Source: Coleofasciculus sp. B1-GNL1-01 (GTDB lineage Bacteria > Cyanobacteriota > Cyanobacteriia > Cyanobacteriales > Coleofasciculaceae). From it: DNA of 53,822 nucleotides. The DNA is taken from the NCBI GenBank assembly GCA_040220235.1, contig JAVJTO010000050.1; one strand, written 5' to 3'. This document shows positions 799-29,747 of this stretch, piece by piece; position 1 is the stretch's first letter; every line of letters begins with the position of its first letter. The translations under genes and the position numbers were made by a program. Below the pieces are notes generated by a model, which worked only from the letters and a program-made list of their open reading frames with translations, ran no database searches and had not been told where the DNA came from.

Positions 799-885
799 GT
801 AGGGTGGGCAAATGGATAGAAGAATTTCTGGTGAAATCGTTAAATTAACGTAATTTGCCCACCCGACAAGATCAGGCGATCGCAC
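799..885. repeat. REP-like hairpin (GGGTGGGCAAAT...ATTTGCCCACCC) followed by HIP1, copy 1 of 3
   Basis: Inverted repeat with GTAG start; further copies at 9001-9084 and 9479-9561. Confidence 0.8.
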
Positions 886-906
886 TCACATAAAAGGATT
901 AAGTAT

Positions 907-1518
907 TTATATATCACAGTCTTCAAAATAGCGACTCCAGTAACGGTCGATAGCTTTATCCAACTCTCCGAAAGGAAAGTCCTTATCATAATACTCCTTT
1001 AAAGCAACTAAGAAAGCCAGAACTGCTTTTCCTTCCTCGACAGTCAAGCTGTCGAAGCGCTCGTGAAACTGGGCTAGTTGCTCTCCAGAATCGAAGTATT
1101 CTAGTTGCTGCTCCCTGAGCAACTCTAGCATATCATCTGGGAGACCAGGTGAACGTTGAGCCAGGTAATCGTAGCTTTCTACAATATCCGGGCGAGATGG
1201 TTTGGTAAGCGTGCCTATAAGCACATCTACAAAGAAATCGACGGATTCGTATGAGTTTACAGAAGCAGATAAAAACGCAGGTAGAAAATACCGAAATGCC
1301 TCCGGAGTTAGCATCACAAGGTCACCTCCTATCTCATAGCGCATCTCCTCAGCAGTGAGTTCTCTGGGGGTTATCCTAGCCAGAAATTGACCCAGTTTTC
1401 TATGCTCGTACTGCACTCGAGGCAACGATACTAATATCTGAGTATCTAGGGGCCGAGGGCGTGAAGCAAAGGCATCAAAGAAATATGCTCTGAGGTCTTT
1501 GTTAGAAGGTATTTGCAT
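907..1518 (-). CDS. Putative immunity protein (DUF6714-like)
   Basis: 203-aa acidic ORF 15 bp downstream of a toxin-tipped DUF4157 gene; LTPEAFRYFLPAFL motif recalls DUF6714. Confidence 0.6.
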   Translation of the reverse strand: MQIPSNKDLRAYFFDAFASRPRPLDTQILVSLPRVQYEHRKLGQFLARITPRELTAEEMRYEIGGDLVMLTPEAFRYFLPAFLSASVNSYESVDFFVDVLIGTLTKPSRPDIVESYDYLAQRSPGLPDDMLELLREQQLEYFDSGEQLAQFHERFDSLTVEEGKAVLAFLVALKEYYDKDFPFGELDKAIDRYWSRYFEDCDI

Positions 1519-1533
1519 ATCATCGCGGATTGT

Positions 1534-2763
1534 TTAGTGTGCTTGTTGAATTTGCTTTAGGGCTGACTCGAGCGCCGCTATCACCGCTAAAATCCCTGCT
1601 GCTATAGAGCCAGCCACGCCTACGGCAAGAATGGCTTTCCCAAGTGCAATGATTGCGACAATAAGTGCAGCTATTGCAGCAATAGTTAGTCCTGCTTCGA
1701 CAAGCCTTTGAGTGCGTTCAACTACTTCCTCCATTACTTGTACTAATTGTTGTGGACAGTTAGAATCATCGAAGTACCTATAGCAACGCATCATCATGTT
1801 CGTCGTTTGCTCTATGTGATCACGATGTATTTTATCCCCACCCTTAAAACACGTAGTAGCCATTGCAGTCCGTGCGGCGATTTCTGCAGTAGCGGCGGCG
1901 ATCTTGGTCGCAAGGGTTACACAGTCGTCGGTATCATAACATCTACCAAGTGTAGCTGTGACTTTTTTAGTTGACTCTACTGCTACTAATAAGGCTGTAT
2001 ATCGGGCCCAACTACAGTCTCCTGGAGGCACCATACCATCACCAGGATAAAATTGCACTACTTGACCTGCCATCTTGGTGTGTATTTTTTTGCTCTGAAT
2101 ATTTGTATTGCTGCGTTCATTCGTAGGTTGTTGTTTGATATCAGGTGCGGTTCCCTGCTGCACCACATGAGTCAACTCATGGGCCGTCAACTCATTATTC
2201 CCCGGTGATTTCCCCGCCCCAAAATAAACATCACTCCCATGAGTAAACGCCTGAGCGCCCAACTCCTGATTCATCTGCACCGCTTCACCACCCGTATGCA
2301 CCCGCACCCCACTAAAATCAGCCCCAAAGCGCGGTTCCATAAATCCTCTCACGTCCTCTGATAATGGAGAACCTCCACCCTTAGACGCATTCAAACGACT
2401 CTCTAAATCCCCAGAGGCTTGATTTCCATCTATTTGATGCGCCCGTTGTATCATCTGGCGCATTTGCACACGCGGATCAATTCGCTTTTGCACCACGGGT
2501 GTAATTGATTGCGCTCGTTGCCATATCTGCTTGGGATTATTGGCTTCCAACTGACGCTGAACGGATGCTGAACTATCCGCAGGCGCTGACATTGATATTA
2601 CCTGAGACGCTACTCGGTCAGCTTCTTGCTCGTAAGTATCTCCTGGCGCTCCTATGGTTGACCCTGAGCGAAGTCGAAGGGTCAATTTCGTTTGAATGCC
2701 AATTTCATCTAAGTCTTTCCCGGCTTCTCCCGCCTGTTCCTTCTCTGTTGAGGAGTTATACAA
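1534..2763 (-). CDS. DUF4157 (eCIS core) protein with Ntox16-like tip and hydrophobic tail; 5'-deleted copy
   Basis: DUF4157 with AHELTHVVQQ; tip PGDC...C...CFKGGDKIH...RC; compared with 6255-8102 the native ATG and about 125 N-terminal codons are deleted, leaving a TTG start. Confidence 0.75.
   Translation of the reverse strand: MYNSSTEKEQAGEAGKDLDEIGIQTKLTLRLRSGSTIGAPGDTYEQEADRVASQVISMSAPADSSASVQRQLEANNPKQIWQRAQSITPVVQKRIDPRVQMRQMIQRAHQIDGNQASGDLESRLNASKGGGSPLSEDVRGFMEPRFGADFSGVRVHTGGEAVQMNQELGAQAFTHGSDVYFGAGKSPGNNELTAHELTHVVQQGTAPDIKQQPTNERSNTNIQSKKIHTKMAGQVVQFYPGDGMVPPGDCSWARYTALLVAVESTKKVTATLGRCYDTDDCVTLATKIAAATAEIAARTAMATTCFKGGDKIHRDHIEQTTNMMMRCYRYFDDSNCPQQLVQVMEEVVERTQRLVEAGLTIAAIAALIVAIIALGKAILAVGVAGSIAAGILAVIAALESALKQIQQAH
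2657..2680. repeat. 24-bp SDR-like palindromic insertion in frame within the DUF4157 gene
   Basis: GTTGACCCTGAGCGAAGTCGAAGG adds LRLRSGST, absent from both paralogs; related motif at about 39942-39970. Confidence 0.65.
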
Positions 2764-2876
2764 TTATAGTCAATCATCAAGGGAAAATCAGCGCGATCGC
2801 TTCCCCTGGTGAACTATAACGTTGTAACTCTAGCCCTCTTTTGTCACTGGAGGAATTTCGACTCAGATGAATTTAC
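2749..2876. repeat. Duplicated upstream (promoter) region of DUF4157 genes
   Basis: Homologous to 8161-8280 (GAGGAGTTATACAATTATAGTCAATCATCAAG...CTCTAGCCCTCTTT). Confidence 0.8.
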
Positions 2877-3139
2877 CCATTGCTCATTTTATAGATGCGG
2901 CGTTCAACCGCAGCCCTATATTTTGGAAGGATTTGGAGATTGAGGGTATTTGCGATAGCGATAATTAGCCGACTCTTTTATTCTGACAATGGTTGGAGTG
3001 TTTCGAGGTATGGATTCATCCCAAGACAGGGGGAAGAGGTATAGTGCGATCGCACAAACACTATTTTATTGATCGTAGCTGATTTCCTGAGATAGGTGAT
3101 CAGGGTAAGCTGGTGCTAGAGACGCGATCGCAAGCTAGT

Positions 3140-3611
3140 TCAGCCTAGCCCCATACCTCTCATAAAAACCTGAATATCTTGCATCAACTTCTGGCTACAA
3201 ATCGCTAATTTTTCTGATAATTGCACGACTAGATCAGGATTGAGATTATGAGCATAGTTACTTCTGACAACGTGGCGAAAGCGTCGGAATTCGTCCAAGT
3301 CAATTAATGTTGTCTCTGAAAGTACAGCTTGGCGAACCGTCGGGATCTCTACAGACAGTTGTTCCAATACTTGCCGATGCCAATCTGCACCTGTTGGCAC
3401 GTCTCCATCTATCTCTTTAGCAATTTCATAGAAGATACGCTCTGCTCCCGTATAATAGCTTTGCATATTCAGCGCAATAGCCGCGATGAGTGCGTTTTGC
3501 ATATCATCATCTTGAGTTTGGGGAAGTTTGTTGATCAGTCGTTGAGTTTGAGTGACTGCTTCTTTCGCCTTGTGCTAATTCCTGCTCAATGCGCTGAACC
3601 AACATAGTCAT
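3140..3611 (-). pseudogene. HEPN (HepT-like) toxin with a +1 frameshift near 3570
   Basis: ATG at 3611 gives MTMLVQRIEQELAQ; another frame continues AKEAVTQTQRL...SYYTGAERIF...FRRFRHVVR; directly downstream of an MNT gene. Confidence 0.75.
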
Positions 3612-3613
3612 CG

Positions 3614-3988
3614 TCACAGTTCTATCCCTTGCTGAATGGCTGCTTGGATATGGGGGGGTGATGATTCAGCATCTATCAGGTCAATGGGGAAATGATGTCC
3701 TCTTTCGGCAATTGCCCCAGCCCGTAGGTAATGGTTTGTTTCAATTCCCCAAACGGCAAGGTCGATATCAGAATGCCAGGTCATGCGCTGGTGATCAAGC
3801 ATTGAACCAAATAAAACAACGCGATTTGCGCCAAATTCCTCCTTCAGGGTAGCAGCCGCTTGGCGTGCTGCTTGCCAGCCTTGCTGCTGGAGTTTTTTCA
3901 TCTGGAGCAAAAACTCAGCCCTATTTTTACGGGCGGTTAGCACTCTCTTTACAATCTGTTCACGGGTTTTTGTGTCCACGGAGGGCAT
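3614..3988 (-). CDS. Minimal nucleotidyltransferase (MNT) antitoxin
   Basis: VVLFGSM...SDIDLAV motif; paired with the HEPN gene. Confidence 0.85.
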   Translation of the reverse strand: MPSVDTKTREQIVKRVLTARKNRAEFLLQMKKLQQQGWQAARQAAATLKEEFGANRVVLFGSMLDHQRMTWHSDIDLAVWGIETNHYLRAGAIAERGHHFPIDLIDAESSPPHIQAAIQQGIEL

Positions 3989-4034
3989 GAGTTGCAGGGG
4001 TTTGATTAAGAGGTTGAGGGCATCTGCGATCGCA

Positions 4035-4116
4035 CTTGGAAAACCCAGAGCAGGTTAGTGGTGATCCAGAGTTATCCGGTTTCAGGTTGCTGATGGCAAA
4101 GATTTGGCGATTTGGG
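4035..4116 (+). pseudogene. 3'-terminal Uma2 remnant
   Basis: Matches about 703-783 and 8906-8985; starts immediately after the HIP1 at 4026-4033. Confidence 0.8.
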
Positions 4117-5073
4117 TTAAGTCTTGTCACCTTCTGGTTTTTCCAGTAATAAATCAATATCTCCAAACATCCCAGTTATATAGGATTCCAGAACTTCTCT
4201 TCCTTCAGCATTGGGACAAATTTTTATAGCTTCTAAGGCTTGTTCCCGTTCTTTTAAAGCTGCCCATATCAAGAAGCTTTTCGTGTCAATTTTGTCTAAT
4301 ATTTCTTTGATTCGTTCTGCATGAGTAGCGATTTCATTGTCTGTCACTAGGGACAATAGCTCATCTCGTTCTGAGTGATGAGATTCCAACCCATAGAGCA
4401 AAGGGAGAGTAATTTTTCCCTGCTTTAAGTCAGTTATACCATCAGGTTGCCAAATGGATTCCATGTCGTTAAGAATTTGTAGAGCAAGCCCCAGATGATG
4501 ACCAAAAGCACCACAAGATTGAATCAGTTCAGGGTTATCTGTTCCCACCATAGCACCAGTAGCACAAGCTGTAGCCACAAAGCCAGCACTTTTCATTTCT
4601 ACGGTTAACCAATAGTCTTCAACAGTTCGAGTAGTTCCAACTAGCTCTCTATCCTGACCTACTGATATACGAAAAAAGGCATCAATATAGGACTGATTAA
4701 TTTTGTGAAATATCTTGGGTTCAAGAGATGCTTTGCTCAGGATTTCAAAGGAAAGAATATGAATAGCTGAAGCATAATTCCAAGCTCTAGTGGCGCCGAC
4801 CTCCTTCCATAGCTGTCCATCTCGATCTTGATCTTCCAAATCATCCAAAATGCGTAGGCATAGACCCAGAGCTAGAAGTGCAGCACAAACATGAATAGCC
4901 TCTTTGGCTTCTCCATCAACAGCTTGACAGGAAGCTAATGGTAATATCGCCTCTGGAATCATTGGTTCTTCAAACAATTTGGCTAGTACCACCTTCAATT
5001 CTGTCCAAAAATTGGGAATTGAGTTTTGAAAAACCTCTCTAATTTCTGGATATAATGATTTTAAAGAATTCAT
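4117..5073 (-). CDS. ComQ-like isoprenyl transferase (class I isoprenoid synthase fold), copy A
   Basis: FARM LRILDDLEDQD followed by GQLW rather than RRG; GQD motif; KS; degenerate second motif QILNDMES; DLKQGKITLPLLY. Confidence 0.8.
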   Translation of the reverse strand: MNSLKSLYPEIREVFQNSIPNFWTELKVVLAKLFEEPMIPEAILPLASCQAVDGEAKEAIHVCAALLALGLCLRILDDLEDQDRDGQLWKEVGATRAWNYASAIHILSFEILSKASLEPKIFHKINQSYIDAFFRISVGQDRELVGTTRTVEDYWLTVEMKSAGFVATACATGAMVGTDNPELIQSCGAFGHHLGLALQILNDMESIWQPDGITDLKQGKITLPLLYGLESHHSERDELLSLVTDNEIATHAERIKEILDKIDTKSFLIWAALKEREQALEAIKICPNAEGREVLESYITGMFGDIDLLLEKPEGDKT

Positions 5074-5139
5074 GTCAATTTACTCAAAATTTACGACCAA
5101 TTGAGGCTGTGATGGAGCCCTCAACTATTGCATAATTCG

Positions 5140-6252
5140 TCAGTTTGTGGGATTCCAGACATACTTTCCCTTTTTGTCAATATAGCCTTGCTTTTCACCA
5201 ATCTTTACCCATGCCAGCCCTTCGATGAAGATACTAGCCCAATCAAACTGGGGTTCTATAACTATCTGCCCAGTTTTGTTGATATAGCCCCACTTATCCT
5301 CAATCTTTACTGCTGCCAACCCTTCAGAGAAATTAATAGGTCGCTCCTTAAACTGTGGATCAATAACCATTTTCCCAGTTTTGTCAATATAGCCCCATTT
5401 GACATTAGTCATGTTTGGTGGTTTGCTCTCAGCAGAGATCATACCAGTTGCGACGACTGCAAGTCCTTCAGAAAAGTCATAACCTTCATCAAATTGGGGT
5501 TCAATAACTATCCGACCAGTTGTATCAATGTAGCCTACTTTGTCTCCAACTCTGACAGCAGCTAATCCTTCAGAGAATTCCCTAACCAAATTTGAAGATG
5601 GATTGATTACTATCTGCCCAATTTTGTTGATATAGCTTACTCGCCTATCGAGTCTCACCAATGCTAGCCCTTTAGAAAACTCCCTAGCCTCATTAAACTG
5701 AGGCTTGATGACTATTTGCCCCGTCTTATTGATATAGCCCATTTTGCCATCAATATCTACAGCAGCCAACCCTTCAGAGAACCTATATGTTAAATCGAAC
5801 TGGGGAGGAATAACTAATTTACCCGTCTTATTGATATAGCCCATCTTGCCATCAATATCTACAGCAGCTAATCCTTCGTAAAAGCTATAAGCAGAATCAA
5901 AATCAGATTCAATAACAATTTGTCCAGTTTTATCGATATAACTCCACTTATCACCTATTCTGACGGTTGCTAGTTCTTCAGAGAACTGACCAGTTTCATC
6001 AAATTTGGGCTTGATAAGAATTTGCCCCGTAGAATTAATATAACCCCACTTACCATTCTGACTGATAGGAAACAGTTGGGAAGGCTCTGAGATTGGCATT
6101 TGTGAATGGTTTGATACCTGCATTGCCTGTGGAGAAGTACTCAATATGATTGTCGGACGTTGAGTGCTACAAGATAGCAAACCTAAAATAGCCTGGCATA
6201 AAAGCAAAAAAATGATTCGGTTCACCATAAACTTTTTGATATAAAACATCAT
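5140..6252 (-). CDS. WG-repeat (KWG beta-repeat) lipoprotein, putative immunity
   Basis: Signal peptide with lipobox-like LLSC; about 8 repeats of FSEGLAAV...KWGYINKTG; starts 2 bp after the toxin stop. Confidence 0.85.
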   Translation of the reverse strand: MMFYIKKFMVNRIIFLLLCQAILGLLSCSTQRPTIILSTSPQAMQVSNHSQMPISEPSQLFPISQNGKWGYINSTGQILIKPKFDETGQFSEELATVRIGDKWSYIDKTGQIVIESDFDSAYSFYEGLAAVDIDGKMGYINKTGKLVIPPQFDLTYRFSEGLAAVDIDGKMGYINKTGQIVIKPQFNEAREFSKGLALVRLDRRVSYINKIGQIVINPSSNLVREFSEGLAAVRVGDKVGYIDTTGRIVIEPQFDEGYDFSEGLAVVATGMISAESKPPNMTNVKWGYIDKTGKMVIDPQFKERPINFSEGLAAVKIEDKWGYINKTGQIVIEPQFDWASIFIEGLAWVKIGEKQGYIDKKGKYVWNPTN

Positions 6253-6254
6253 TA

Positions 6255-8102
6255 TTAGTGGTTGATTCTTTTAATTGTTCCTATATGTTGGGTGCCACTC
6301 CGTTTGTTAATTAGATGTTTGTAAATAGATGGCCAACTGTTATCTGTAACACTTACGCATCCCCAAGAAACGTCTCCACGGTGTAAATACTCATCTCCTT
6401 GGGGTCCACCTTCAATTCTAAACCACGTTTTGGCATAATTTCCGTAATTATCACCCCCAGCATGAGGGTGATCAGGAAGCCGAAGAGGATATTCTCTATC
6501 AAGGGCTATTTTAGGAGCACTCGGATCGTTGGGATTAGTATCTATTGTTGCTCTGGCAGTGCCACCACCATAATCTAATATCCCAGTTTTTTCATTAAAA
6601 GTTACCGCTACGGCTCCTCCCCAATTTGTCAAACCAAGGTATCCTGGTTTCAGGCTTGCTTTTGTTCCCTCCCAGGGTCCTTCCAAAATAGTAAAATAAT
6701 CTCGTTCCCCTTTTTGTTCTTGATATTCAACTTTCAATGCATCAGGAAAACTCCGCTGATTATTTCCTATTAGTCCAACCACCCAACCCTCTGTATTTCC
6801 AGAAGAGACACCCAGTATTTCCCCCTTCTTAAAAGTTGTTTGGGGAGTACATCCAGAGATACACCTTCTCAGGGTGTGGGAGTTATCTTTTTTCTGAATA
6901 TCTACAGCCTTTGGTTCCTCTAAAACCTGTTGCTGAGAAGCTACAATTTTATCAGCCGAATTTTCCCGTTGAAACTGAAGAATCTCCTTGCGGTAAACCG
7001 AGGAATCATGACCAGTAGTTCCTCCCAAGGATTGCAGATGGCTCAATACATCACTCTTAGGTGCTATCCCTTCCAGAATCGGTACTTCTTTTAAATTGAT
7101 TGCCGGTTTCTGAGGTTTCTGATTCTGCCGCTGCACAACACCTGTCTGCTGCACAACATGAGTCAACTCATGCGCTGTCAACTCATTATTCCCCGGCTCC
7201 TTCCCTTGACCAAAATAAACATCACTCCCATGAGTAAACGCCTGAGCGCCCAACTCCTGATTCATCTGCACCGCTTCACCACCCGTATGCACTCGCACTC
7301 CACTAAAATCAGCACCAAAGCGCGGTTCCATAAACCCTCTCACGTTCTCCGATAATGGAGAACCCCCACCCTTAGACGCATTCAAACGATTCTCTAAATC
7401 CCCAGATGCTTGATTTCCATCTATTTGATGCGCCCGTTGTATCATCTGGCGCATCTGCACACGCGGATCAATTTGCCTGTGCACCACAGGTGTAATTGAC
7501 TGCGCTCGTTTCCATATCTGATGGGGGTGATGGGGGTGATTGGTGTCCAACTGACGCTGAACGGATGCTGAACTATCAGGAGGCGCTGACATGGACATTA
7601 CCTGAGATGCTACTCGGTCAGCTTCCTGCTCGTAGGGATCTCCTGGTGCTCCTACCGTCAACTTGGTTTGAATGCCAATTTCCTCTAAGTCTTTCCCGGC
7701 TCCTCCCGCCTGTTCCTGCTCTTCTTTGGCACAATCAGCACATTGGCGTTGAATCGGGTTCTGTGATACTGGGGCAAAAGCACCTTTTAATTGGGAAGCT
7801 GGGCTTTGTGGTAAGGGTGGGGGTGGCTCAAACGTGGGTGCCCATGGTGATTCAGATTTACGCTGTAGCGTTGACTCTTCAGCTTCCTCCTGTTTTTTGG
7901 CTTGGATTCCTCGCATCACATTCGCGGTGAGTCTATCGGCTGATGCTCTGGAATACTCCCCGATTTCCTGGGATGGGGCAGATGACGGGTTTGACTTGGG
8001 TTGAATCGAAGAATGTCCCATTTTACCTGGACTCTTACCCTTTTTCTGTACTGGGGTGGGAGTCCAGGATGAATTTTTCTTGTGTACGGGTTTATACTCC
8101 AT
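6255..8102 (-). CDS. DUF4157 protein with Tlde1/DUF2778-like (L,D-transpeptidase fold) tip
   Basis: Low-complexity leader, CADC, DUF4157 HELTH, linker, then C-terminal YLHRGDVSWGCVSV (H..SxGC). Confidence 0.8.
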   Translation of the reverse strand: MEYKPVHKKNSSWTPTPVQKKGKSPGKMGHSSIQPKSNPSSAPSQEIGEYSRASADRLTANVMRGIQAKKQEEAEESTLQRKSESPWAPTFEPPPPLPQSPASQLKGAFAPVSQNPIQRQCADCAKEEQEQAGGAGKDLEEIGIQTKLTVGAPGDPYEQEADRVASQVMSMSAPPDSSASVQRQLDTNHPHHPHQIWKRAQSITPVVHRQIDPRVQMRQMIQRAHQIDGNQASGDLENRLNASKGGGSPLSENVRGFMEPRFGADFSGVRVHTGGEAVQMNQELGAQAFTHGSDVYFGQGKEPGNNELTAHELTHVVQQTGVVQRQNQKPQKPAINLKEVPILEGIAPKSDVLSHLQSLGGTTGHDSSVYRKEILQFQRENSADKIVASQQQVLEEPKAVDIQKKDNSHTLRRCISGCTPQTTFKKGEILGVSSGNTEGWVVGLIGNNQRSFPDALKVEYQEQKGERDYFTILEGPWEGTKASLKPGYLGLTNWGGAVAVTFNEKTGILDYGGGTARATIDTNPNDPSAPKIALDREYPLRLPDHPHAGGDNYGNYAKTWFRIEGGPQGDEYLHRGDVSWGCVSVTDNSWPSIYKHLINKRSGTQHIGTIKRINH

Positions 8103-8348
8103 GATGCCGCTTCAGTTACCCAATGATTTACTGATCCCAAGCCAATTGCTTCAATAATGCTGAGGAGTTATACAATTATAGTCAATCATCAAGAGAAAAT
8201 CAGTGCGATCGCTTCCCCGGCTGAACGATAATGTTGTGACTCTAGCCCTCTTTGGTCACTTGGGAAATTCCGACTAAGACAGACTTTTGATACAGGACAT
8301 CTCGACCCATTATGGAAGGTGCGCGTCTTGGTCGGAGAGAATATTGCT

Positions 8349-8980
8349 ATGACCACAACTCTACTTATTCAAACTGAAACCACTCCCTTAAAGATTTCGC
8401 TACCTGCGATCGCGCCAATGACTCGCGAGGAGTTCTATACCTTTTGCCAAGCGAATCGAGACTTGCGTATCGAACGTACTGCGGCTGGAGATGTTGTCAT
8501 TATGCCACCTGCTTTTTCAGATACCGGAAACCGCAATTTTAATCTAGCCGTACAGCTTGGTATCTGGGCGGAAATTGATGGTACAGGGAAAGGGTTTTGA
8601 CTCCAGTGCAGGATTTACGCTTCCTAATAGTGCAACGCGATTCTCCTACGGAGACGCTTCGCGAACGCCTGATGCGTCTTGGATTAAAACAGAACGGTGG
8701 AATGCTCTAACTGAAGAAGAAAAAGCATCCTTTGCCCCAATTTATCCTGATGCGTGTGATTGAGTTACGCTCGGCGAGTGATACTTTAAGTGGTTTGAAA
8801 GCGAAGATGCAGGAATACATAGAGAATCGTGTATCTCTAGGCTGGTTGATTGACCGCAAAAATCGCACTGTCTATGTCTATCGCCCGAATCAAGAGGTTC
8901 AAGTCTTGGAGAATCCAGAGCAGGTTAGTGGTGATCCAGAGTTACCCGGTTTCAGATTGCTGATGGCAAAGATTTGTTGA
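8349..8980 (+). pseudogene. Uma2/DUF820 endonuclease with two frameshifts and an SDR insertion
   Basis: Split over ORFs 8319-8600, 8557-8763 and 8732-8980; +1 shifts near 8590 and 8752 relative to the 362-778 copy. Confidence 0.85.
8637..8668 (-). repeat. SDR5-like element inserted in a HIP1 site
   Basis: 24 extra bp split GCGATCGC (intact at 460-467 in the paralog); reverse strand reads GCG-TTCGCGAAGCGTCTCCGTAGGAGA-ATCGC. Confidence 0.8.
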
Positions 8981-9000: not shown

Positions 9001-9084
9001 GTAGGGTGGGCAAATGGATATAATGTCTGGTGAAATTATTCAATTAACATAATTTGCCCACCCTACCAGATTGGGCGATCGCAC
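9001..9084. repeat. REP-like hairpin plus HIP1, copy 2
   Basis: GTAGGGTGGGCAAAT...ATTTGCCCACCCTAC then GCGATCGCAC. Confidence 0.8.
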
Positions 9085-9187
9085 TAAGCTGTTCGGCATT
9101 TAAACCTTAATATCAATAATGACGCAATCCTTGTAGTGCGAGCATCTTGCTCGCTACTAATACCCAATTTAAATGCATGACAGCTTA
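9085..9187. mobile_element. MITE-like element
   Basis: Imperfect terminal inverted repeats TAAGCTGTtcgGCATTTAAA / TTTAAATGCatgACAGCTTA; internal palindrome GTAGtGCGAGCATCTTGCTCGCTAC. Confidence 0.65.
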
Positions 9188-9422
9188 CGAGATATCAAAA
9201 GATAGTTCGCGTTTACTAGCAACACAATCTTCAAGGTATAAATTAATTAATTCTTGCCAAAACATTCCTTTTTCTTGTGCCATTTCCTCAAAATATTCTA
9301 TGACTTCTATCCCTAAGGGTAAAGTTACTTGTTGTTTTAATGTTTGGGCAAATGGATTGGGTATGCTTTTCTTGATTGATTCTATTCTTTTCGTTATCCC
9401 ACTCAAAAATTAATCGCTTCAT
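9185..9422 (-). pseudogene. Internally deleted BrnT/BrnA-type TA operon
   Basis: ATG at 9422 encodes MKRLIFEWDNEKNRINQEKH (BrnT N-terminus), joined out of frame near 9362 to NPFAQTLKQQVTL...LINLYLEDC (BrnA/CopG-like antitoxin). Confidence 0.7.
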
Positions 9423-9914: not shown

Positions 9915-11174
9915 ATGTCTGAAGGATTTGAAACTCAATCGCATCAAGCCAACAAAACTACTCGTCATCAGTCGAAGCCCAGAGAAGCCGTATCAATTGA
10001 AGCTATTCAACAGAACTTAGTTGAGAATTTCTCTGATATCAAAGACAAGAGAGTAGAGCGAACGAAGAAACATCAGCTCACAGACATCTTAGTAATTGCA
10101 ATTCTGGCAATAATCGCTGGAGCAAAAGGATGGGAAGATATCGAAAATTATGGCATTAGTAAGCAAAAGTGGTTGGAGGAGTTTTTGGCATTACCTAACG
10201 GCATTCCCTCAGATGACACCTTCCGACGGGTATTTGAGTTCATTGACCCAGAAGCATTGCATCGATGCTTTGTGCGATGGGTAGAAACCCTGGTGACTCA
10301 GATGAACGGAGAAATCGTCCCCATAGATGGTAAGACTTTGAGAAGTTCCTACGACCGAAATCAAGGCCAATCAGCACTCCATGTCATTAGTGCTTGGGCA
10401 AGCGAACAACGTTTGGTGCTGGCACAGTTAAAAGTTGAAGATAAATCTAATGAAATCACTGCCATTCCCCCACTATTAGAGTTGTTGGATTTAACCGGAT
10501 GCATTGTGACTATTGATGCGATAGGAACCCAAACCGATATTGCCCGAAAGATTATCCACAAGAAAGCTGATTATGTCCTGGCACTTAAAGCGAATCATCC
10601 CACTCTCTACTGTCAGGTGAAAGCTTGGTTTGAGCAAGCTCAAGCCCAGCAGTTTGCAGGAATTGATGTTAGTTATGATAGACGCATTGAAAAAGCACAT
10701 CATCGCACGGAAATCCGCGAAGTTTGGTCTGTACCTGTTTCTGCTCTTGGTGATATTTATCAACCTCGACTCTGGGCAGGACTCCAAAGCCTTGTCATGG
10801 TTATCCGAGTGCGTCATCTCTGGAATAAAACGACTCGTGAAGTTCAGTTTTATTTGACTTCTTTATACAGTAATGCTCAACTTATCGGTCGAGCTATCCG
10901 AAAACATTGGGGGATTGAGAACCAAGTTCATTGGACTCTTGACGTCACTTTGGCTGAAGATGCTTCCCGTATTCGTTCTTTCCATAGTCCTCGAAATTTT
11001 GCTCTCTTGCGGCGCATGGCTCTTAATGCCCTCAACCGAGAACATACATATAAACGTAGTCTTCGACAAAAAAGTAAACGAGCAGCTATGGATAATGATT
11101 ATATGATTCAAGTTCTCAGTTGTTGTTTTACTAACAATACATTAGAGGCTTCTGATGCCTTGTGTCAAGCCTGA
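9915..11174 (+). CDS. ISAs1-family (H-repeat) transposase
   Basis: GIPSDDTFRR, IDGKTLR, KSNEITAIP, VTIDA, HWGIENQVHWTLDV motifs. Confidence 0.95.
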   Translation: MSEGFETQSHQANKTTRHQSKPREAVSIEAIQQNLVENFSDIKDKRVERTKKHQLTDILVIAILAIIAGAKGWEDIENYGISKQKWLEEFLALPNGIPSDDTFRRVFEFIDPEALHRCFVRWVETLVTQMNGEIVPIDGKTLRSSYDRNQGQSALHVISAWASEQRLVLAQLKVEDKSNEITAIPPLLELLDLTGCIVTIDAIGTQTDIARKIIHKKADYVLALKANHPTLYCQVKAWFEQAQAQQFAGIDVSYDRRIEKAHHRTEIREVWSVPVSALGDIYQPRLWAGLQSLVMVIRVRHLWNKTTREVQFYLTSLYSNAQLIGRAIRKHWGIENQVHWTLDVTLAEDASRIRSFHSPRNFALLRRMALNALNREHTYKRSLRQKSKRAAMDNDYMIQVLSCCFTNNTLEASDALCQA

Positions 11175-11400: not shown

Positions 11401-12363
11401 TTAAGTCTTGTCACCTTCTGGTTTTTCCAGTAATAAATCAATATCTCCAAACATCCCGGTTATATAGGATTCCAGCACTTCTCTTCCCTCAGCATTGGGG
11501 CAAACTTTTATAGCTTCTAAGGCTTGTTCCCGTTCTTTTAGAGCCGCCCATATCAAGAAGCTTTTCGTGTCAATTTGGTCTAATATTTCTTTTATTCTTT
11601 CTGCATGAATAGCAATGTCATTGTCTGTCACTAGGGATAATAGCTCATCTCGTTCTGGGTGCTGGGCTTGCAAACCATACAGTAAAGGAAGAGTAATTTT
11701 TCCTTGCTTTAAGTCTGTAATTCCATCAGGTTGCCATATTGATTCCATGTCGTTAAAGATTTGAATAGCCAATCCAACATGATGACCGAAAACGTGGCAA
11801 GCTTCAATCAGCTGTTGGTTTTCCGTTCCAAGCATTGCTCCCGATGCACAGGCGGCTGAGTATGCTGTAGCTGTTTTCAATTCTATAGTTCGCCAATAGT
11901 CTTCAATACTATTCGACAACCCGATCAAATCACGTTCTTGACCTACAGTTATATAGAAAAAGGCATCTATAAAGAGTTGATTAACTTTCCGAAATATTTG
12001 GGGAGAAAAGGAGGCCTTACTCAGTATCTCAAAGGATAGAATATGAATAGCTGAGGCATAATTCCAGGCACGAGCTTCTCCAAGCAGTTCCCATAACTGT
12101 CCTGGACGATCTTTATCTTCCAAGTCATCAAATATTCGCAGACTGACTTCTGTGGCAATAAGTGCTGCGGAAACAGGTACAGCTTCCCTCGCTGTCCCAT
12201 TAACGGCATGACAACTAACCAGCGGTAAGATAGCTACAGATAGCAGTGGCGGTGGTTTAGCGAAGATTGTATCAAAAATTGGCCTCAGCTCTGGCCAGCA
12301 ATCCGGAATTCCATCTTCAAGCACCTGACGCACTTCTGGATATAGTGATGTTAGCCAATCCAT
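11401..12363 (-). CDS. ComQ-like isoprenyl transferase, copy B
   Basis: LRIFDDLEDKDRPGQLW, GQE, KT, QIFNDMES; last 117 aa differ from copy A at only 8 positions. Confidence 0.8.
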   Translation of the reverse strand: MDWLTSLYPEVRQVLEDGIPDCWPELRPIFDTIFAKPPPLLSVAILPLVSCHAVNGTAREAVPVSAALIATEVSLRIFDDLEDKDRPGQLWELLGEARAWNYASAIHILSFEILSKASFSPQIFRKVNQLFIDAFFYITVGQERDLIGLSNSIEDYWRTIELKTATAYSAACASGAMLGTENQQLIEACHVFGHHVGLAIQIFNDMESIWQPDGITDLKQGKITLPLLYGLQAQHPERDELLSLVTDNDIAIHAERIKEILDQIDTKSFLIWAALKEREQALEAIKVCPNAEGREVLESYITGMFGDIDLLLEKPEGDKT

Positions 12364-12389: not shown

Positions 12390-12893
12390 TTAAGGAAGTA
12401 CATGGACTTGAATGGGCTCTAGCTCTTTGTCTTTGTAGCTAGGTACTAATGTGTACTCACCAGGCGTTGGAAACAAAGACTGACCCATTGACCAACTCAT
12501 TGAAACTCTATCACCAGCAGGGAGAGCAAACCACTTCTCTTCTCGTAGACCATTACTAATTGCTAAATTCCATGCCATAGATTGCTCACCATTGATGAAA
12601 AGCTTTACCAGATGAAGTTCTGGATTTGTGACTTCGTCACTCTGGTTGGTAGCAGTAAGAGAAATCTTGAAGTTTTGTATCTCCGATATGGAGAACTCCA
12701 ACGGTTCAGCGGTAATTTGTAGCTGGACAGTATCTATCTTTGTATTTTGTTCTTTCATCGTTTCTTCTCCATTTTCTGGCAGTGAGGGATCAGCCGCCTG
12801 ATTTTGACCCTCAGTTTGACATATAACCAGCATAGTCACACTAAGGATAATAAGCGTGTAACGCGCAAAAAATTCTAAGCAAACATTCATCAC
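12390..12893 (-). CDS. Exported Ig-like protein, putative immunity
   Basis: N-terminal hydrophobic signal; beta-strand pattern (ISLTATNQ, PGEYTLV); ATGA overlap with the upstream toxin gene. Confidence 0.65.
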   Translation of the reverse strand: MMNVCLEFFARYTLIILSVTMLVICQTEGQNQAADPSLPENGEETMKEQNTKIDTVQLQITAEPLEFSISEIQNFKISLTATNQSDEVTNPELHLVKLFINGEQSMAWNLAISNGLREEKWFALPAGDRVSMSWSMGQSLFPTPGEYTLVPSYKDKELEPIQVHVLP

Positions 12894-14836
12894 GGAGTCC
12901 TTTCGACACTTTCACCAGCTTTTTTGACCTTGGAAGTACCATCCGAGCCTGATATCGAAAAGGCTTGGGTTACGGTTGTAAATTTCTTTCCATTACCCCC
13001 TTCACCTTTAACCCTAAAATGGTTTGGAATATCCCACTTGAATCCACCTTTTTTCCATGGTGCAGGGTGGCCAGAGAAAGCCGCGTGGTCTCGTAATGTA
13101 CCAAGTGTATTATCCTGTGCAATCGGGACAAAATTAGGATTCGGATGGTGATACAAACTAGCAGGAGGGTAAGGCTTGAAGTATCCCGATATATTAGTAG
13201 CTGGACCAGGAATCTCTTTGATGAAAGCATTTCCGAAAGACACTTTCTTGGGGTGAAAATTAAAGTTTAGGCGCATACCAGCACCCTGAGTACCCGCAGG
13301 GTAAGTATCTTCACTTGTCTTGGTTCCGGTGATACCATTGGGTTCTATGACATTCATCGAGACTGAGGATTCTTTACCACCTAGCTCAAACTTTATTTTC
13401 ACGGATGCAGCTCTATTGGGGGCAGTCCAATTAAACGTATTTCCGTTAGGCAAAGTTACAGGAGTCCCAGCTGATGCCGTCCACTTCCCTGCACTCGGTG
13501 CTTGAAATTTAACCTCTTCACCTACACCAACAACCGTTCGTGAATTTGGAGAGCCATCTGGTGCATTAAATTTTGTTTTATGAGTGATTTTGCCAGCCGC
13601 ATTACTATCCCCACAAGCTCGAAAAATTTTAGAGTTATCACCTGTCTGAGTTATACTTCCATTTTGAGTTGGCAAGAGTTGTCGCTGTTTCTCAAGAATC
13701 TGTTCAGTTGAATGGGTCTGCTGGAATTGAGCAATTTCTTTACGGTACAAAGCTCCATCAATATTTAATCGCTCCTGCATAGCTTGTAGATGACCCAAAA
13801 CTTGACTCTTGGGTGCGATGCCATGCAAAAGGCTAGGTTGGATCTGTTCTTGTTTATTCTTCCTCTGCACAACACCCGTCTGCTGCACAACATGAGTCAA
13901 CTCATGCGCCGTCAACTCATTATTTCCCGGCGATTTCCCTGCCCCAAAATAAACATCACTCCCATGAGTAAACGCCTGTGCGCCCAACTCCTGATTCATC
14001 TGCACCGCTTCACCACCCGTATGCACCCGCACTCCACTAAAATCTGCCCCAAAGCGCGGTTCCATAAACCTTCTCACGTCCTCGGATAACGGAGAACCTC
14101 CACCCTTAGACGCATTTAAACGATTCTCTAAATCCCCAGATGCTTGATTTCCATCTATTTGATGCGCCCGTTGTATCATCTGGCGCATCTGCACACGCGG
14201 ATCAATTTGCCTGTGCACCACGGGTTTAATGGATTGCGCTCGTTTCCATATCTGATGGGGGTGATGGGGGTGATTGGTGTCCAACTGACGCTGAACTGAT
14301 GCTGAACTATCCGCAGGGGCTGACATGGACATCACCTGAGACGCTACTCGGTCAGCTTCTTGCTCGTAGGGATCTCCTGGCGCTCCTACCGTCAACTTGG
14401 TTTGAATGCCAATTTCCTTTAAGTCTTTCCCGGCTTCCCCCGCCTGTTCCTGCTCTTGGTTGGCACAATCAGCACATTGGCGTTGAATCGGGTTCTGTGA
14501 TACTGGGGCAAAAGCACCTTTTAATTTGGAAGCTGGGCTTTGTGGTAAGGGTGGGGGTGGATCAAACGTGGGTGCCCAGGGCGATTCAGATTTACGCTGT
14601 AGCGTTGACCCTTCGGCTTGCTCCTGCTCCTTAGCTTGGATTCCTCGCATTACATTGGCGGTGAGTCTATCAGCTGATGCTCTGGAGTATTCCCCGATTT
14701 CTGGGGATGGGGTAGATGACGGGTTTGACTTGGGTTGAATCGAAAAATGTCCCATTTTACCGGGACTCTTACCCTTTTTCTGTACTGGGGTTGGAGTCCA
14801 GGAGGAATTTTTCTTTTGTACGGGTTTATACTCCAT
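12890..14836 (-). CDS. DUF4157 protein with an unassigned beta-rich C-terminal domain
   Basis: First about 326 aa near-identical to 6255-8102; homologous linker; unrelated tip of about 235 aa. Confidence 0.85.
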   Translation of the reverse strand: MEYKPVQKKNSSWTPTPVQKKGKSPGKMGHFSIQPKSNPSSTPSPEIGEYSRASADRLTANVMRGIQAKEQEQAEGSTLQRKSESPWAPTFDPPPPLPQSPASKLKGAFAPVSQNPIQRQCADCANQEQEQAGEAGKDLKEIGIQTKLTVGAPGDPYEQEADRVASQVMSMSAPADSSASVQRQLDTNHPHHPHQIWKRAQSIKPVVHRQIDPRVQMRQMIQRAHQIDGNQASGDLENRLNASKGGGSPLSEDVRRFMEPRFGADFSGVRVHTGGEAVQMNQELGAQAFTHGSDVYFGAGKSPGNNELTAHELTHVVQQTGVVQRKNKQEQIQPSLLHGIAPKSQVLGHLQAMQERLNIDGALYRKEIAQFQQTHSTEQILEKQRQLLPTQNGSITQTGDNSKIFRACGDSNAAGKITHKTKFNAPDGSPNSRTVVGVGEEVKFQAPSAGKWTASAGTPVTLPNGNTFNWTAPNRAASVKIKFELGGKESSVSMNVIEPNGITGTKTSEDTYPAGTQGAGMRLNFNFHPKKVSFGNAFIKEIPGPATNISGYFKPYPPASLYHHPNPNFVPIAQDNTLGTLRDHAAFSGHPAPWKKGGFKWDIPNHFRVKGEGGNGKKFTTVTQAFSISGSDGTSKVKKAGESVERTP

Positions 14837-15220: not shown

Positions 15221-17332
15221 ATGGATAGTCCCACACCCATCACCTGGTATCAAGCCAACTTTCACTATCTCCAGATAGCCGTTAATCAAGTCCGACAGGT
15301 TTTGGAAGATTACCTCGCTTACCAGCAAAATCAGCCCAACTTAGCCAAATTGGAAACAACGTTAGCCCCAGATGCCGCAACGATTCTCGACTATGCACCG
15401 CCAGTATTAGATAAACTCTGCGCTTTATTTCACCTCTCCCAATTTGACCGCTATATCCTCTTATTATGCGTTGGCATGGAGTTGGATAGTGAGTTTGAAG
15501 TCTTATGTGCCAAAATTAACGGCAATCCTAAACAAAATTATCCGACGCTGAATCTAGCCTTATCTACGTTTCACCAGTCTGATCTGAGCATTCTTTCCTC
15601 CCAATCTCCCTTACACTACTGGGAACTGATTGAAAGGGTGGAAGGATTATTCTTTACTCAATCACCTCTACGCATTAATCGGCGCATTCTCTGTTATCTG
15701 TTGAGTGAACCTTGCGTAGATAAGGAATTGGCAGGTATCCTTTTACCTGTACCGCCTTCATCTTCCACTCCTCTTCCCCCTTCGTATCAAGAAATTGCTG
15801 ACAAACTTATCGCCACTTGGTCTAAACCACTGGCAAATTTTGACGATCCCGTTGTTCAGTTATGTGGTTCAGATATAGGGGCAAAGCAATCTATTGCTAC
15901 TGTCGCCTGTAGTGCATTAGGCTGGAATCTTCAGATGATATCAGCCTCTGTTCTTCCCTTTAATCCCAATGAACTGTATCAGTTGATGCAACGGTGTTTC
16001 CGGGAAACTTTATTAAACCACAGTTTCTTGTTCCTGAATGCTGATGAGATGACTCAAGGTGATCCTCGGCGAGAATGGGCAATTGCTGAGTTTGTTGAAC
16101 AATTAGAAGTGCCATTAATTTTCAGCACCCAGGAACGACAACCGCAACATCAACGCCCGATGATTACTTTAGAGGTGGGTCAACTGAGTCATGCTGAACA
16201 ACGAGATATCTGGAAATTCCATCTCGGTTCACTGACAACAGAACTGAATGGACAACTTGATACCATCGTTTCTCAATTTAATCTGGATGCGGCAACTATT
16301 CAAGCTGCCTGTTTATCGCTGAATAGTAGTGACTATACGTCCACATCAACGGATAAACCACAGGAAGACAAACAAACCGATAAAGAACCAGCCAAAACAT
16401 CTTCATCCTCAACCCGTCGTCGCTCATCGAAAACTCAAAAGACTCAACCCAAAATAGAACATAATTTATCTCCCCTGCAAACTCATTTATGGGATTTCTG
16501 TAAAGTTCAAGCGCGTCCCCGTTTAGATGATTTGGCGCAACGGATTGATGCTGTAGCGACTTGGGAAGAGTTGATTCTACCAGAACGGGAAAAAAATACA
16601 TTACATGAAATTTCAACTCATGTGCGCCAACGAGCAAAAGTTTATCATGAGTGGGGATTTGCGGGAAAAGGAGGACGCGGTTTAGGGATTAGCGCTCTTT
16701 TTTCCGGACCGAGTGGAACTGGAAAAACTATGGCGGCGGACGTATTGGCAAAGGAATTGCGCCTTGACCTTTATCGGATTGATTTGAGTGCAGTGGTGAG
16801 TAAATATATTGGTGAAACGGAGAAGAATCTGCGGCGAATCTTTGATGCAGCGGAAACCAGTGGGGCAATTTTATTGTTTGATGAAGCGGATGCTTTGTTT
16901 GGTAAACGAACGCAAGTGAAAGACTCCCATGACCGCCATGCGAATGTGGAAGTGAGTTATTTATTGCAACGGATGGAAGCCTATCAGGGATTAGCGATTT
17001 TGACGACAAATCTGCTCGACGCCTTAGATCAAGCGTTTATGCGTCGGATTAATTTTTCGGTGAAGTTTCCCTTTCCCAACGCCCCAGAACGAACCGAGAT
17101 TTGGCAGCGCATTTTCCCAAAAGAAACGCCGACAAAGAACTTAGATATGAAAAAGTTGGGCAAACTAAATATGGCGGGGGGAAATATCCGTAATATTGCC
17201 TTAAATGCGGCGTTTATTGCGGCTGATGCGGGTGAACCTGTTATGATGAAACATCTTTTACAAGCGACGAAAAGCGAATCTCTGAAGTTGGGGAAAATTT
17301 TAACGGATTCTGAAATCAGTGGCTGGGTTTAA
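15221..17332 (+). CDS. AAA+ ATPase of the eCIS Afp15/Pvc15 type
   Basis: GPSGTGKT, DLSAVVSKYIGETEKNL, LLFDEADALFGKR, ANVEVSYLLQRME; degenerate first AAA module; adjacent to DUF4157 genes. Confidence 0.85.
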   Translation: MDSPTPITWYQANFHYLQIAVNQVRQVLEDYLAYQQNQPNLAKLETTLAPDAATILDYAPPVLDKLCALFHLSQFDRYILLLCVGMELDSEFEVLCAKINGNPKQNYPTLNLALSTFHQSDLSILSSQSPLHYWELIERVEGLFFTQSPLRINRRILCYLLSEPCVDKELAGILLPVPPSSSTPLPPSYQEIADKLIATWSKPLANFDDPVVQLCGSDIGAKQSIATVACSALGWNLQMISASVLPFNPNELYQLMQRCFRETLLNHSFLFLNADEMTQGDPRREWAIAEFVEQLEVPLIFSTQERQPQHQRPMITLEVGQLSHAEQRDIWKFHLGSLTTELNGQLDTIVSQFNLDAATIQAACLSLNSSDYTSTSTDKPQEDKQTDKEPAKTSSSSTRRRSSKTQKTQPKIEHNLSPLQTHLWDFCKVQARPRLDDLAQRIDAVATWEELILPEREKNTLHEISTHVRQRAKVYHEWGFAGKGGRGLGISALFSGPSGTGKTMAADVLAKELRLDLYRIDLSAVVSKYIGETEKNLRRIFDAAETSGAILLFDEADALFGKRTQVKDSHDRHANVEVSYLLQRMEAYQGLAILTTNLLDALDQAFMRRINFSVKFPFPNAPERTEIWQRIFPKETPTKNLDMKKLGKLNMAGGNIRNIALNAAFIAADAGEPVMMKHLLQATKSESLKLGKILTDSEISGWV

Positions 17333-21697: not shown

Positions 21698-22495
21698 ATG
21701 AAACTCATCCGTTTTTTCCCCCACAAACTAGCCATAACCGCTTTAGTAACATTGCTTTTAATCGTGGGGTTGAGCCTGAAAGAGCCAGTTCGGGTACAAG
21801 CGCAGTTAAGCAATGCCTCGATCAGTTCTCAGTTACCCGATCAATGGGAATCCGCGCCACTGCCTAATTCTGGTGATTCAGGTCTACAAGATAGCAGTAA
21901 TTTACCGTTTGCGGGTTGCCTCAGCAGTTATCCCATTGCCTTAGTACCCGCCTCTGGTATGGGACAAACACTGGCGGAGTATCCCACCATCTTTTGGTAT
22001 CTACCCCGGACAAGGGCTTGGGGCATGGAGTTTAAGTTAACAGATCGTGATAGTCAGGAAATTTACTCGACCAAGTATGCCTTTGCCCGTGGCACCTCAA
22101 ACGATTATCAGGGACAAGATGACCAATTGGTTGTTGGCACGCCCGGTATACTCAGTTTAACCATACCGAGATTAACGGGTAGCTCTCTGCCACTGAAAGA
22201 GGATCAGAAGTATGACTGGACTGTAAAAATAATCTGTAACCCCAATGATCCATCCGGTGATGTTTATCTGGCAGGCACAATCCGGCGAGTGTCAATTGAC
22301 CATACTCTAAGCCGTCGCCTACAGCAAGCACCACCTGAGGAGCGTGTGGTACTTTACGCAAAGGAACGACTGTGGTATGAAGCATTAGGGACGTTGGTGA
22401 AACTCCAGCGCGATCGCCCGAATGATCCGGCTGTGATTGCGGCTTGGGACAAGCTACTGAAGTCTGTCGGGTTAGATATGATTCTACTCGGATAA
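21698..22495 (+). CDS. DUF928 domain protein 1
   Basis: Signal peptide; IALVP, PTIFWYLP, LWYEAL, WDKLLKSVGL. Confidence 0.85.
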   Translation: MKLIRFFPHKLAITALVTLLLIVGLSLKEPVRVQAQLSNASISSQLPDQWESAPLPNSGDSGLQDSSNLPFAGCLSSYPIALVPASGMGQTLAEYPTIFWYLPRTRAWGMEFKLTDRDSQEIYSTKYAFARGTSNDYQGQDDQLVVGTPGILSLTIPRLTGSSLPLKEDQKYDWTVKIICNPNDPSGDVYLAGTIRRVSIDHTLSRRLQQAPPEERVVLYAKERLWYEALGTLVKLQRDRPNDPAVIAAWDKLLKSVGLDMILLG

Positions 22496-24930: not shown

Positions 24931-24946
24931 TCACTGAGTCACTGTC

Positions 24947-29669: not shown

Positions 29670-29747
29670 CAGCATAAGTAGTCGGACATAATTAAAGTTA
29701 AACATGAGGACAAGGGAACAGGGAACAGTAAAAAGGATTACCCCGAA

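Follow-up and report, generated by a model that had tools for sequence, protein, structure and literature searches.

We analysed a window of 53,822 nucleotides (nt) on contig JAVJTO010000050.1 of the cyanobacterium Coleofasciculus sp. B1-GNL1-01 (assembly GCA_040220235.1), which encodes toxins with a DUF4157 (eCIS_core) domain and a variable C-terminal tip. Between DUF4157 and the tip, two of these toxins carry a linker that is an undescribed module of about 70 amino acids (aa); the same module joins DUF4157 to tips of about 20 unrelated families, and occurs in archaea as well as in several bacterial phyla. The linker shows strong genetic coupling to a gene encoding an enzyme with the trans-IDS fold (that of trans-isoprenyl diphosphate synthases). 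From these sequences, we propose that the linker is a leader bound by the enzyme, which would prenylate the flexible junction behind an invariant Arg, most likely on a Cys; we give this proposal as a whole an even chance of being right.

Identification and distribution of the linker

Three DUF4157 genes were identified in the window, all on the minus strand: T1, T2 and a truncated T3. Toxin T1 (6255..8102, 615 aa) contains a disordered N-terminus (pLDDT, the predicted local distance difference test, <50 over most of aa 1-145), DUF4157 (aa 249-321; 7140..7358, minus strand; E 1.5e-27), the first copy of the linker (aa 343-414; 6861..7076, minus strand) and the tip. Toxin T2 (12890..14836, 648 aa) contains DUF4157, the second linker copy (13613..13828, minus strand, ending FRAC) and a tip without a Pfam match. 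DUF4157 with its HExxH motif lies N-terminal to a variable tip, as is typical of this toxin class. Behind T1, and likewise behind T2, lie an immunity-like gene and next to it a PF00348 gene; the latter two genes encode the enzymes E1 and E2.

An earlier note, made from the letters of this window, had read the two linker segments as LEGIAPKS...YRKEILQFQ...DNSHTLRRC and LHGIAPKS...YRKEIAQFQ...DNSKIFRAC. Both translate in this way from the minus strand, with GIAPKS beginning two codons inside 6861-7076 and 13613-13828. The toxin comparison also bore out that the homology between T1 and T2 ends at the Cys, and T3 (1534..2763, minus strand), described as having neither linker nor prenyltransferase gene, indeed scores 2 bits against the linker profile and has no enzyme gene of its own. 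T3 consists of an N-terminally truncated DUF4157 and Ntox16, and is followed by a DUF6714 gene (907-1518). The two linker copies share 43% identity; their global alignment scores 150, whereas 1000 shuffles scored -22 on average and 16 at most. The ratio of nonsynonymous to synonymous substitution rates (dN/dS) of the linker ranges from 0.08 to 0.47 between T1 and five homologues; the comparison between T1 and T2 is saturated.

A linker profile of 72 positions, built from enzyme-adjacent copies, was run over 1.84 billion representatives. A total of 88 matches were retrieved and 81 were kept. Among the seven left out, P0049, P0080 and P0084 are repeat-like or low-scoring and false, and P0067, P0073, P0076 and P0086 are partial or aberrant. 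PF13699 is matched by 66 of the 81 kept proteins, several of the others being N-terminally cut, and the 76 tips long enough to compare form 20 clusters. The linker has no NCBIfam match, and Pfam gives nothing beyond DUF4157 on T1 or T2. A linker-seeded metagenome scan returned only two loci, one a near copy of T1 and the other the G162 contig. A second, unrelated helical linker (NHEAMLDEAI...[IV]QR) was observed between DUF4157 and different tips at L002:3-1682 and L011:7711-9582.

Coupling of the linker with the enzyme gene

The genome of Coleofasciculus sp. B1-GNL1-01 has 13 DUF4157 matches. Three of them carry the linker, and the genome's three enzyme genes sit behind those three. The third copy, on contig C155, is followed by an immunity-like gene and the enzyme gene, and ends in QARLM followed by MRGN, with no Cys.

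An enzyme-seeded scan of GTDB genomes yielded 19 loci, which by their record titles belong to Cyanobacteria, Methanoperedens archaea, Methylococcales, Acidobacteria, Spirochaetales/Leptospirales and one Nanohalarchaeota metagenome-assembled genome (MAG). The enzyme is full-length at 18 of these loci, and a linker gene was found in the fetched flanks of 17 of the 18; DUF4157 is visible in 16 of the 17, and the remaining one is cut by a contig end. For the eighteenth locus (L013), the genome holds exactly one linker toxin and one enzyme, on separate contigs. The nineteenth locus is a 36-aa enzyme remnant in a genome without a linker match.

Whole-genome searches gave a similar picture. Among 52 genomes of the window's family, DUF4157 was found in 43. 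Eight genomes have the linker, and the 7 that encode the enzyme are all among these 8; neither linker nor enzyme was found in 35 of the 43 DUF4157-positive genomes. Fourteen of the 15 enzyme matches in this family adjoin a linker toxin and the remaining one follows a truncated toxin. The family of the Methanoperedens genome (53 genomes) has the linker in 5 genomes and the full enzyme in 3 of those 5, with a 34% homologue in a sixth genome. Linker and enzyme were both found in the same 2 genomes of a sample of the window's phylum (401 genomes), which also gave one borderline enzyme match (102 bits) in an unrelated context. A sample of an acidobacterial order (301 genomes) gave one linker and one enzyme, in the same genome. 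Pooled, the enzyme is adjacent at 20 of 26 linker loci and encoded in 12 of 15 linker genomes, and the linker is present in all 12 full-enzyme genomes. These sets overlap with the loci of the enzyme scan, and related genomes in them are not independent; kinship and linkage inflate the p values of the Fisher test (2.5e-7) and the Mantel test (<0.0005), and we give these values no weight.

The gene order varies, with the enzyme downstream, upstream, convergent or common to two toxins. The pairing survives reordering, sharing of one enzyme, a split over two contigs and transfer between bacteria and archaea, which argues for coupling beyond adjacency. The earlier note had suggested checking the co-occurrence with a hidden Markov model of the linker. 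With DUF4157 as the control, this search extends the tight coupling from the three genes of the window across phyla. A conserved segment that is genetically coupled to a modifying-type enzyme gene, with a hypervariable part downstream, is a trait that the linker has in common with leaders of ribosomally synthesised and post-translationally modified peptides (RiPPs).

Features of the enzyme

E1 (4117..5073, 318 aa) and E2 (11401..12363, 320 aa), both on the minus strand, share 71% amino acid identity. Pfam and NCBIfam assign only generic synthase models to the enzyme, the best at 82 bits against NCBIfam cut-offs of 275-600. The AlphaFold2 model of E1 (pLDDT 93) has an all-alpha trans-IDS fold and matches an archaeal geranylgeranyl diphosphate synthase (GGPPS; Z 33.9, root-mean-square deviation (rmsd) 2.6, 301 aligned) and the indole prenyltransferase Ord1 (Z 29.6), with about 20% identity to all. 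The fold alone does not separate synthases from transferases, and the motifs do. Residues of the GGKRxR motif, the His ahead of the FARM (first aspartate-rich motif) and the RR loop bind isopentenyl diphosphate (IPP) in the trans-IDS family. Compared with the three canonical synthases of this genome, GGKRxR is replaced by PxxxEA, the pre-FARM His is replaced, the RRG loop is 4 residues shorter, and the second DDxxD is replaced by NDMES, behind which six more residues are deleted.

E1 carries a FARM (DDLED), a GQxxE motif and a QxxNDMESIW motif at the place of the second aspartate-rich motif (pseudo-SARM). The FARM DDxxD is intact, with a DE variant in some members as in StheQ, and the NDxxx pseudo-SARM has an upstream Gln that is also present in canonical synthases. 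Among 111 homologues, D79 (111), D83 (108), R76 (108), Q142 (110) and K163 (106) are conserved, as are Q201 (110), N204 (108), D205 (109) and W210 (111) on the pseudo-SARM side; a near-invariant Arg lies three residues ahead of the FARM. A FARM DDxxD together with an NDxxx pseudo-SARM is the stated signature of the ComQ family, and StheQ residues D85/D89/D91, K174, Q212, N215 and D216 match positions of the enzyme by motif spacing (10.64898/2026.08.29.745113). Ord1 does not elongate IPP (PMC12510300). By its motifs, the enzyme looks like a transferase and not a chain synthase. No linker-enzyme fusion was found among longer proteins, which is weak evidence. Three weak enzyme matches (26-32%) came from viral contigs; of these, the one looked at more closely is a synthase of the ordinary kind.

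Anatomy of the linker and its junction

In the T1 model, the linker forms helices at aa 351-360, 367-380 and 383-393 (about 7052-6924, minus strand; pLDDT 66-89 over the block), followed by an extended segment at aa 398-418 (pLDDT <50) that contains the junction. This predicted arrangement of three helices and a flexible tail is leader-like, and the linker is likely a leader. Two residues are invariant in the 81-row alignment, F377 and R412 (Arg in 81/81). The junction follows the pattern S-x-T-[LMIV]-R-x-C, and the spacer behind it is 71% G/S/P/A/T. In T1, Arg412 is encoded at 6867-6869, Cys414 at 6861-6863 and a second Cys, Cys418 (ISGC), at 6849-6851; in T2, Arg406 is encoded at 13619-13621 and Cys408 at 13613-13615 (all on the minus strand).

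The Cys lies at +2 from the Arg in 49 of the 81 members and at +3 to +6 in 13 more, so that 62 of 81 have it within seven residues; the frequency expected from tip composition is about 7%. The tips of linker-less toxins often start after [VIL]Q[RKF], a motif with which the TLRR before the Cys of T1 lines up, and a Cys occurs in the next six residues at none of 23 [VILM]Q[RKF] sites behind DUF4157 in such toxins. The Cys is kept with most of the 20 unrelated tip clusters, and thus belongs to the constant part. Of the 19 members without Cys, 12 carry K, Y or W at +2, against a background of 9%; this hint is confined to a few lineages. A conserved Trp was considered as the acceptor and rejected: only 5 of 81 members have a Trp anywhere from -70 to +10 relative to the junction Arg, so another acceptor is needed.

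The tip, immunity genes and cassette exchange

The T1 tip (6255..6860, minus strand) contains an SH3-like domain (aa 420-492) and a domain with an L,D-transpeptidase fold (aa 495-615). The latter carries HxGxxSxGC and matches Pgp2 (Z 10.6, rmsd 3.2, 107 aligned) and Tlde1 (Z 7.3). From this model, the tip is predicted to be an antibacterial domain acting on peptidoglycan, a function that a membrane anchor would suit.

The putative T1 immunity gene (5140..6252, minus strand) encodes a WG-repeat protein with a signal- or lipobox-like N-terminus. The putative T2 immunity gene (12390..12893, minus strand) has a signal-peptide-like N-terminus and no family match. The idea that linker toxins act specifically in the periplasm was rejected: immunity genes with a signal-like start accompany control toxins as well as linker toxins, and those of the archaea have no such start, so that periplasmic immunity is no special property of linker toxins.

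The toxin genes T1 and T2 share 92.5% DNA identity through DUF4157, falling to 40-56% behind it. Between E1 and E2, the first ~630 nt are 54-73% identical and the last ~330 nt 86-98%. Two homology blocks therefore enclose the linker, the tip, the immunity gene and the 5' two-thirds of the enzyme gene, a stretch that could swap as one unit. This stretch seems to be exchanged as a single cassette, and every linker would thereby stay with the enzyme that belongs to it.

Proposed mechanism

The proposed mechanism has five steps. The three linker helices would dock on the enzyme, which we consider highly probable. A prenyl group would then probably be moved from an allylic diphosphate held by the FARM to the toxin junction. 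The acceptor would be the Cys thiol, at about even chances, with Lys, Tyr or Trp as alternatives in some Cys-less lineages. Cleavage after R-x, at the position matching the generic [VIL]Q[RKF] junction, would leave the modified residue at the N-terminus of the tip, a step that we consider somewhat less likely than not. Finally, the lipid would tether the delivered tip, via the G/S/P-rich spacer, to the target membrane, from where the T1 tip would reach peptidoglycan. Autoprocessing by DUF4157 has been proposed (PMC3482391), and DUF4157 is dispensable for loading (10.64898/2026.05.27.728243). On balance, the sequences favour prenylation of the junction over its absence, and for Cys as the acceptor they leave the matter about even. 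The full picture would be Cys S-prenylation in prokaryotes, in which an IDS-fold enzyme reads a portable leader of ~70 aa and puts an isoprenoid on the first residue of ~20 interchangeable tips before injection, with side lineages retargeted to Lys, Tyr or Trp; we place it slightly below even chances.

A number of observations weigh against this proposal. All characterised trans-IDS-like prenyltransferases modify Trp (PMC13290415), and PalQ accepts only Trp and rejects other nucleophiles (PMC10853753). The Cys is absent in 19 of 81 members, including the third copy of this genome. Seven of these 19 have Q, N, D, L or M at +2, and paired enzymes (L002, L011, C155) keep their motifs. Cleavage before the Cys is the weakest step, to which only the resemblance to the generic [VIL]Q[RKF] junction points, and the toxicity of Cgo1 is independent of the HExxH of DUF4157 (PMC8894135). 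A T1-type tip, 50% identical, is found on a toxin of the same genome without linker or enzyme; the lipid can therefore be an accessory only, and not a requirement for the tip. Six of the 26 linker loci have no adjacent enzyme, and no enzyme was found in 3 of the 15 linker genomes. For three of the six loci, the genome encodes the enzyme at another place; of the other three, one is a truncated relic without DUF4157 (G439), one is cut by a contig end (G490), and one (G484, in a 2.1-Mb MAG) has full flanks and a linker, with no enzyme found. Three search centres were chosen for having the enzyme, and the profile comes from enzyme-adjacent linkers. Co-occurrence follows already from physical linkage, and the correlation between linker and enzyme divergence (rho 0.77) is also expected from linkage and kinship. 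On an Acaryochloris plasmid, a 30%-identical enzyme with intact motifs lies directly behind a linker-less tandem-DUF4157 toxin, so the wider enzyme family can accompany DUF4157 toxins without this linker.

These points qualify what the earlier note had claimed. Its statement that the linker occurs only with a prenyltransferase is true of all three copies in this genome and fails at the six loci elsewhere. Linker toxins commonly without the enzyme, the outcome it had named as speaking against its reading, were found as a minority, beside the adjacent pairs at 20 loci and the 12 genomes that encode both. The conservation of the Cys after the Arg stands for 62 of 81 members and across unrelated tips, but not for the other 19, and it is the Arg that is invariant. 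Both are strong trends, not rules. The wider idea of a RiPP-like leader with a prenylated Cys gains from the coupling, the ComQ-type motifs and the leader-like anatomy, and loses by the Cys-less members and the enzyme-less loci.

Alternative explanations

The alternative that survives best, although we regard it as unlikely, keeps the linker as a leader and moves the acceptor to the alpha-amine exposed by cleavage after R-x, or to the invariant Arg, the Cys serving a disulfide, a metal or a second modification. It agrees with an Arg that never changes while the residue at +2 does, with catalytic motifs kept in enzymes paired with RxQ, RRW and RLM junctions, and with at least two junction Cys in 26 of 81 members. 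Prenylation of Arg and of N-termini is known for unrelated cyanobactin enzymes (PMC10853753). The roughly tenfold enrichment of Cys, its presence across unrelated tips and its reappearance downstream when lost at +2 are left unexplained by this alternative.

A less probable explanation is that the IDS-fold protein is mainly a chaperone or adaptor for the linker helices in folding or tube loading, with prenylation absent or vestigial. It draws on a conserved clade of 12 degenerate homologues (P0219-P0230), 41-74% identical to the L064 protein (L064:6904-8049), in which the C-terminal third is kept and a ~65-aa tail is added, and the third Asp of the FARM, GQxxD, the Lys and the pseudo-SARM are lost. 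The only member with a known context, at L064, follows a toxin with DUF4157 and an OmpA-like domain (by eye), which has only a 17-aa remnant of the middle linker helix and no junction Cys. Degenerate enzyme and linker remnant fit joint decay, and this clade also keeps the chaperone explanation alive. The FARM is likewise damaged in the fusion protein P0218, and the C-terminal part of the enzyme is better conserved than the rest (64% vs 54%). Against this, 106-111 of the 111 sequences of the main clade retain the donor-binding residues, and a chaperone leaves the junction Cys unexplained.

We consider it improbable, more so than a chaperone, that the enzyme has a substrate other than the toxin, such as a small molecule, a lipid or the immunity protein, and travels with the linker only as part of the same exchangeable cassette. 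Co-inheritance would follow from the homology blocks flanking the unit from linker to 5' enzyme, the enzyme gene is usually directly behind the immunity gene, and the distant Acaryochloris enzyme adjoins a toxin lacking the linker. But linker and enzyme persist where the immunity genes differ in family and localisation, and the coupling survives rearrangement, the two-contig split and transfer between domains of life. No ComX-like open reading frame (ORF) was seen beside E1 or E2 among listed ORFs of at least 80 aa, and the gap upstream of E2 is 26 nt.

Lipidation of the junction Cys by the ordinary lipoprotein machinery of producer or target, with the IDS-fold enzyme not lipidating, is very improbable: a lipobox-like pattern is seen as LAGC, ISGC, LSGC or IPGC after the Arg in many members with several tips, but what precedes the Cys is a polar linker without a hydrophobic signal helix, most members are R-x-C-G-G-like with no lipobox, and the enzyme is left unexplained.

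Divergent loci of the enzyme family

The Acaryochloris locus (L081:6071-8870; NZ_AP026078.1) encodes an enzyme with the motifs RIVDDCTD and QILDDIESLW. The tip of its toxin starts with KWG behind VRQF, making a Trp acceptor possible there. Genes for a fatty acyl-AMP ligase and a B12 radical SAM protein are found upstream. The third copy of the window's genome represents a divergent subtype (G000:C155:554-3546, L025), with orthologues in G420, G422, G425 and G426; in its enzyme DDFEG replaces NDMES, and with its Cys-less linker end it is a natural test case for a different acceptor. A PF03692 CxxCxxCC (YkgJ-like) gene recurs at L004:9202-9885, L005:7174-7863, L015:5410-5970, L017:4599-5222 and L064 (3721-4392 and 8052-8717), is fused to the enzyme in P0218, and possibly encodes a second modifying or accessory protein. 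L017 has two enzyme copies (3904-4557 and 5344-6288), the first partial with a stop, and the PF03692 gene lies between them.

Other features of the window

An AAA ATPase gene with a WHD domain (15221..17332, plus strand) is oriented divergently from T2. By resemblance, its product is presumably the Afp15/Alg15-type loading ATPase of contractile injection systems (CIS). The same ATPase arrangement appears in L007, L008, L060 and L061, and T1 is near-identical to a gene in a Coleofasciculus record (L007). CIS genes are present: this genome has a sheath match on contig C29 (G000:C29), and the cassettes adjoin sheath-like genes in L060 and L061. No sensor-kinase gene lies directly beside E1 or E2, PADLOC returned nothing for T1 or E1, and scans for promoters and terminators scored no higher than shuffled sequence. 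In four metatranscriptome assemblies, contigs cover 5848-7175 and 4056-5773, and none covers the T2 linker to E2; these contigs cannot show transcription or its level and are therefore not used as support.

The two cassettes are separated by an ISAs1-like transposase (9915-11174, by eye) and flanked by Uma2-like fragments and a nucleotidyltransferase/HEPN-like pair (413-778, 3140-3988 and 8319-8980, by eye). Metatranscriptome contigs with joints from 8285 to 3103 and from 854 to 4026 indicate that related strains order these flanking blocks differently. A short element at about 9080-9190 is probably a genome-wide repeat; in RNA-library contigs, its summed depth is very high and it shows many loose ends. 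Further along the window, four tandem paralogues of a secreted-looking protein (DUF928-like by eye) lie at 21698-25765 and a more distant one at 48335-49339, the region of these paralogues also holding a CHAT-like gene (49596-52331). A tandem 21-nt-type repeat at 29571-29954 (minus strand), reading LVIGHLS repeatedly, lies between two genes.

Comparison with known systems

No account of the linker-enzyme system was found in the open literature; subscription journals and supplements, such as the domain-enrichment tables of PMC8213781, could list PF00348. "Prenyl" is absent from the main text of PMC3482391 (first 300,000 characters), PMC8213781 and PMC11297309. DUF4157 and prenyl are mentioned together in one open publication, where the mention is unrelated (PMC6899460), and contractile injection and prenylation in two that are unrelated by title. 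Cys S-prenylation is presented as eukaryotic in a 2026 review (PMC13290415). If the proposal is true, a prokaryotic enzyme that prenylates Cys under the direction of a leader would add a new chemistry to the trans-IDS fold and would be, within the literature searched, the first dedicated modifying enzyme for injection-system cargo. A portable tag and its enzyme would serve site-specific protein lipidation. With the junction pinned to one residue, whether and where DUF4157 cargo is processed can be tested directly. Even if the acceptor is not Cys, linker and enzyme are two unannotated families now labelled "hypothetical" and "GGPP synthase".

DUF4157 (PVC-metallopeptidase) cargo of CIS, such as Cgo1/Cgo2 and EAT14, has the same disordered N-terminus, DUF4157, variable tip and downstream immunity-like gene, and likewise has an AAA ATPase nearby; the toxins described here differ by an additional conserved linker and by a modifying-enzyme gene dedicated to them. 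Canonical trans-isoprenyl diphosphate synthases, whose family name PF00348 the databases also give to the enzyme genes, have the fold, FARM, GQxxD, KT and QxxxD positions in common with the enzyme, but also the IPP-binding motifs and second DDxxD that it has lost. Eukaryotic CaaX prenyltransferases resemble the proposed system in Cys S-prenylation as a membrane anchor; they differ in having another fold, a C-terminal motif and a host-supplied enzyme, whereas the Cys here is internal or N-terminal and the producer would supply the enzyme. Some effectors are prenylated by host enzymes.

The ComQ, StheQ, PalQ and ChrPC P domain enzymes and Ord1/XiaM have the same fold, a FARM with an NDxxx pseudo-SARM, and a gene beside the presumed substrate. 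ComQ-type substrates are also alike in having a helical leader-like part and a flexible acceptor segment. They are short peptides, whereas the presumed substrate here is a polymorphic toxin of 450-800 aa; the neighbour of the enzyme gene is a toxin or immunity gene, and not a short precursor with a conserved Trp. Ord1 is only about 20% identical to the enzyme, and canonical GGPPS structures score as high or higher. In the HlyA/HlyC system of RTX toxin acylation, an enzyme encoded in the producer's operon lipidates the toxin. HlyC differs in that it is an unrelated enzyme placing a fatty acyl group on an internal Lys of one toxin type, which is secreted by type I secretion and has no swappable tips. 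By analogy, the linker and its enzyme would work like a ComQ or RiPP leader-enzyme pair and like HlyC acylation of RTX toxins.

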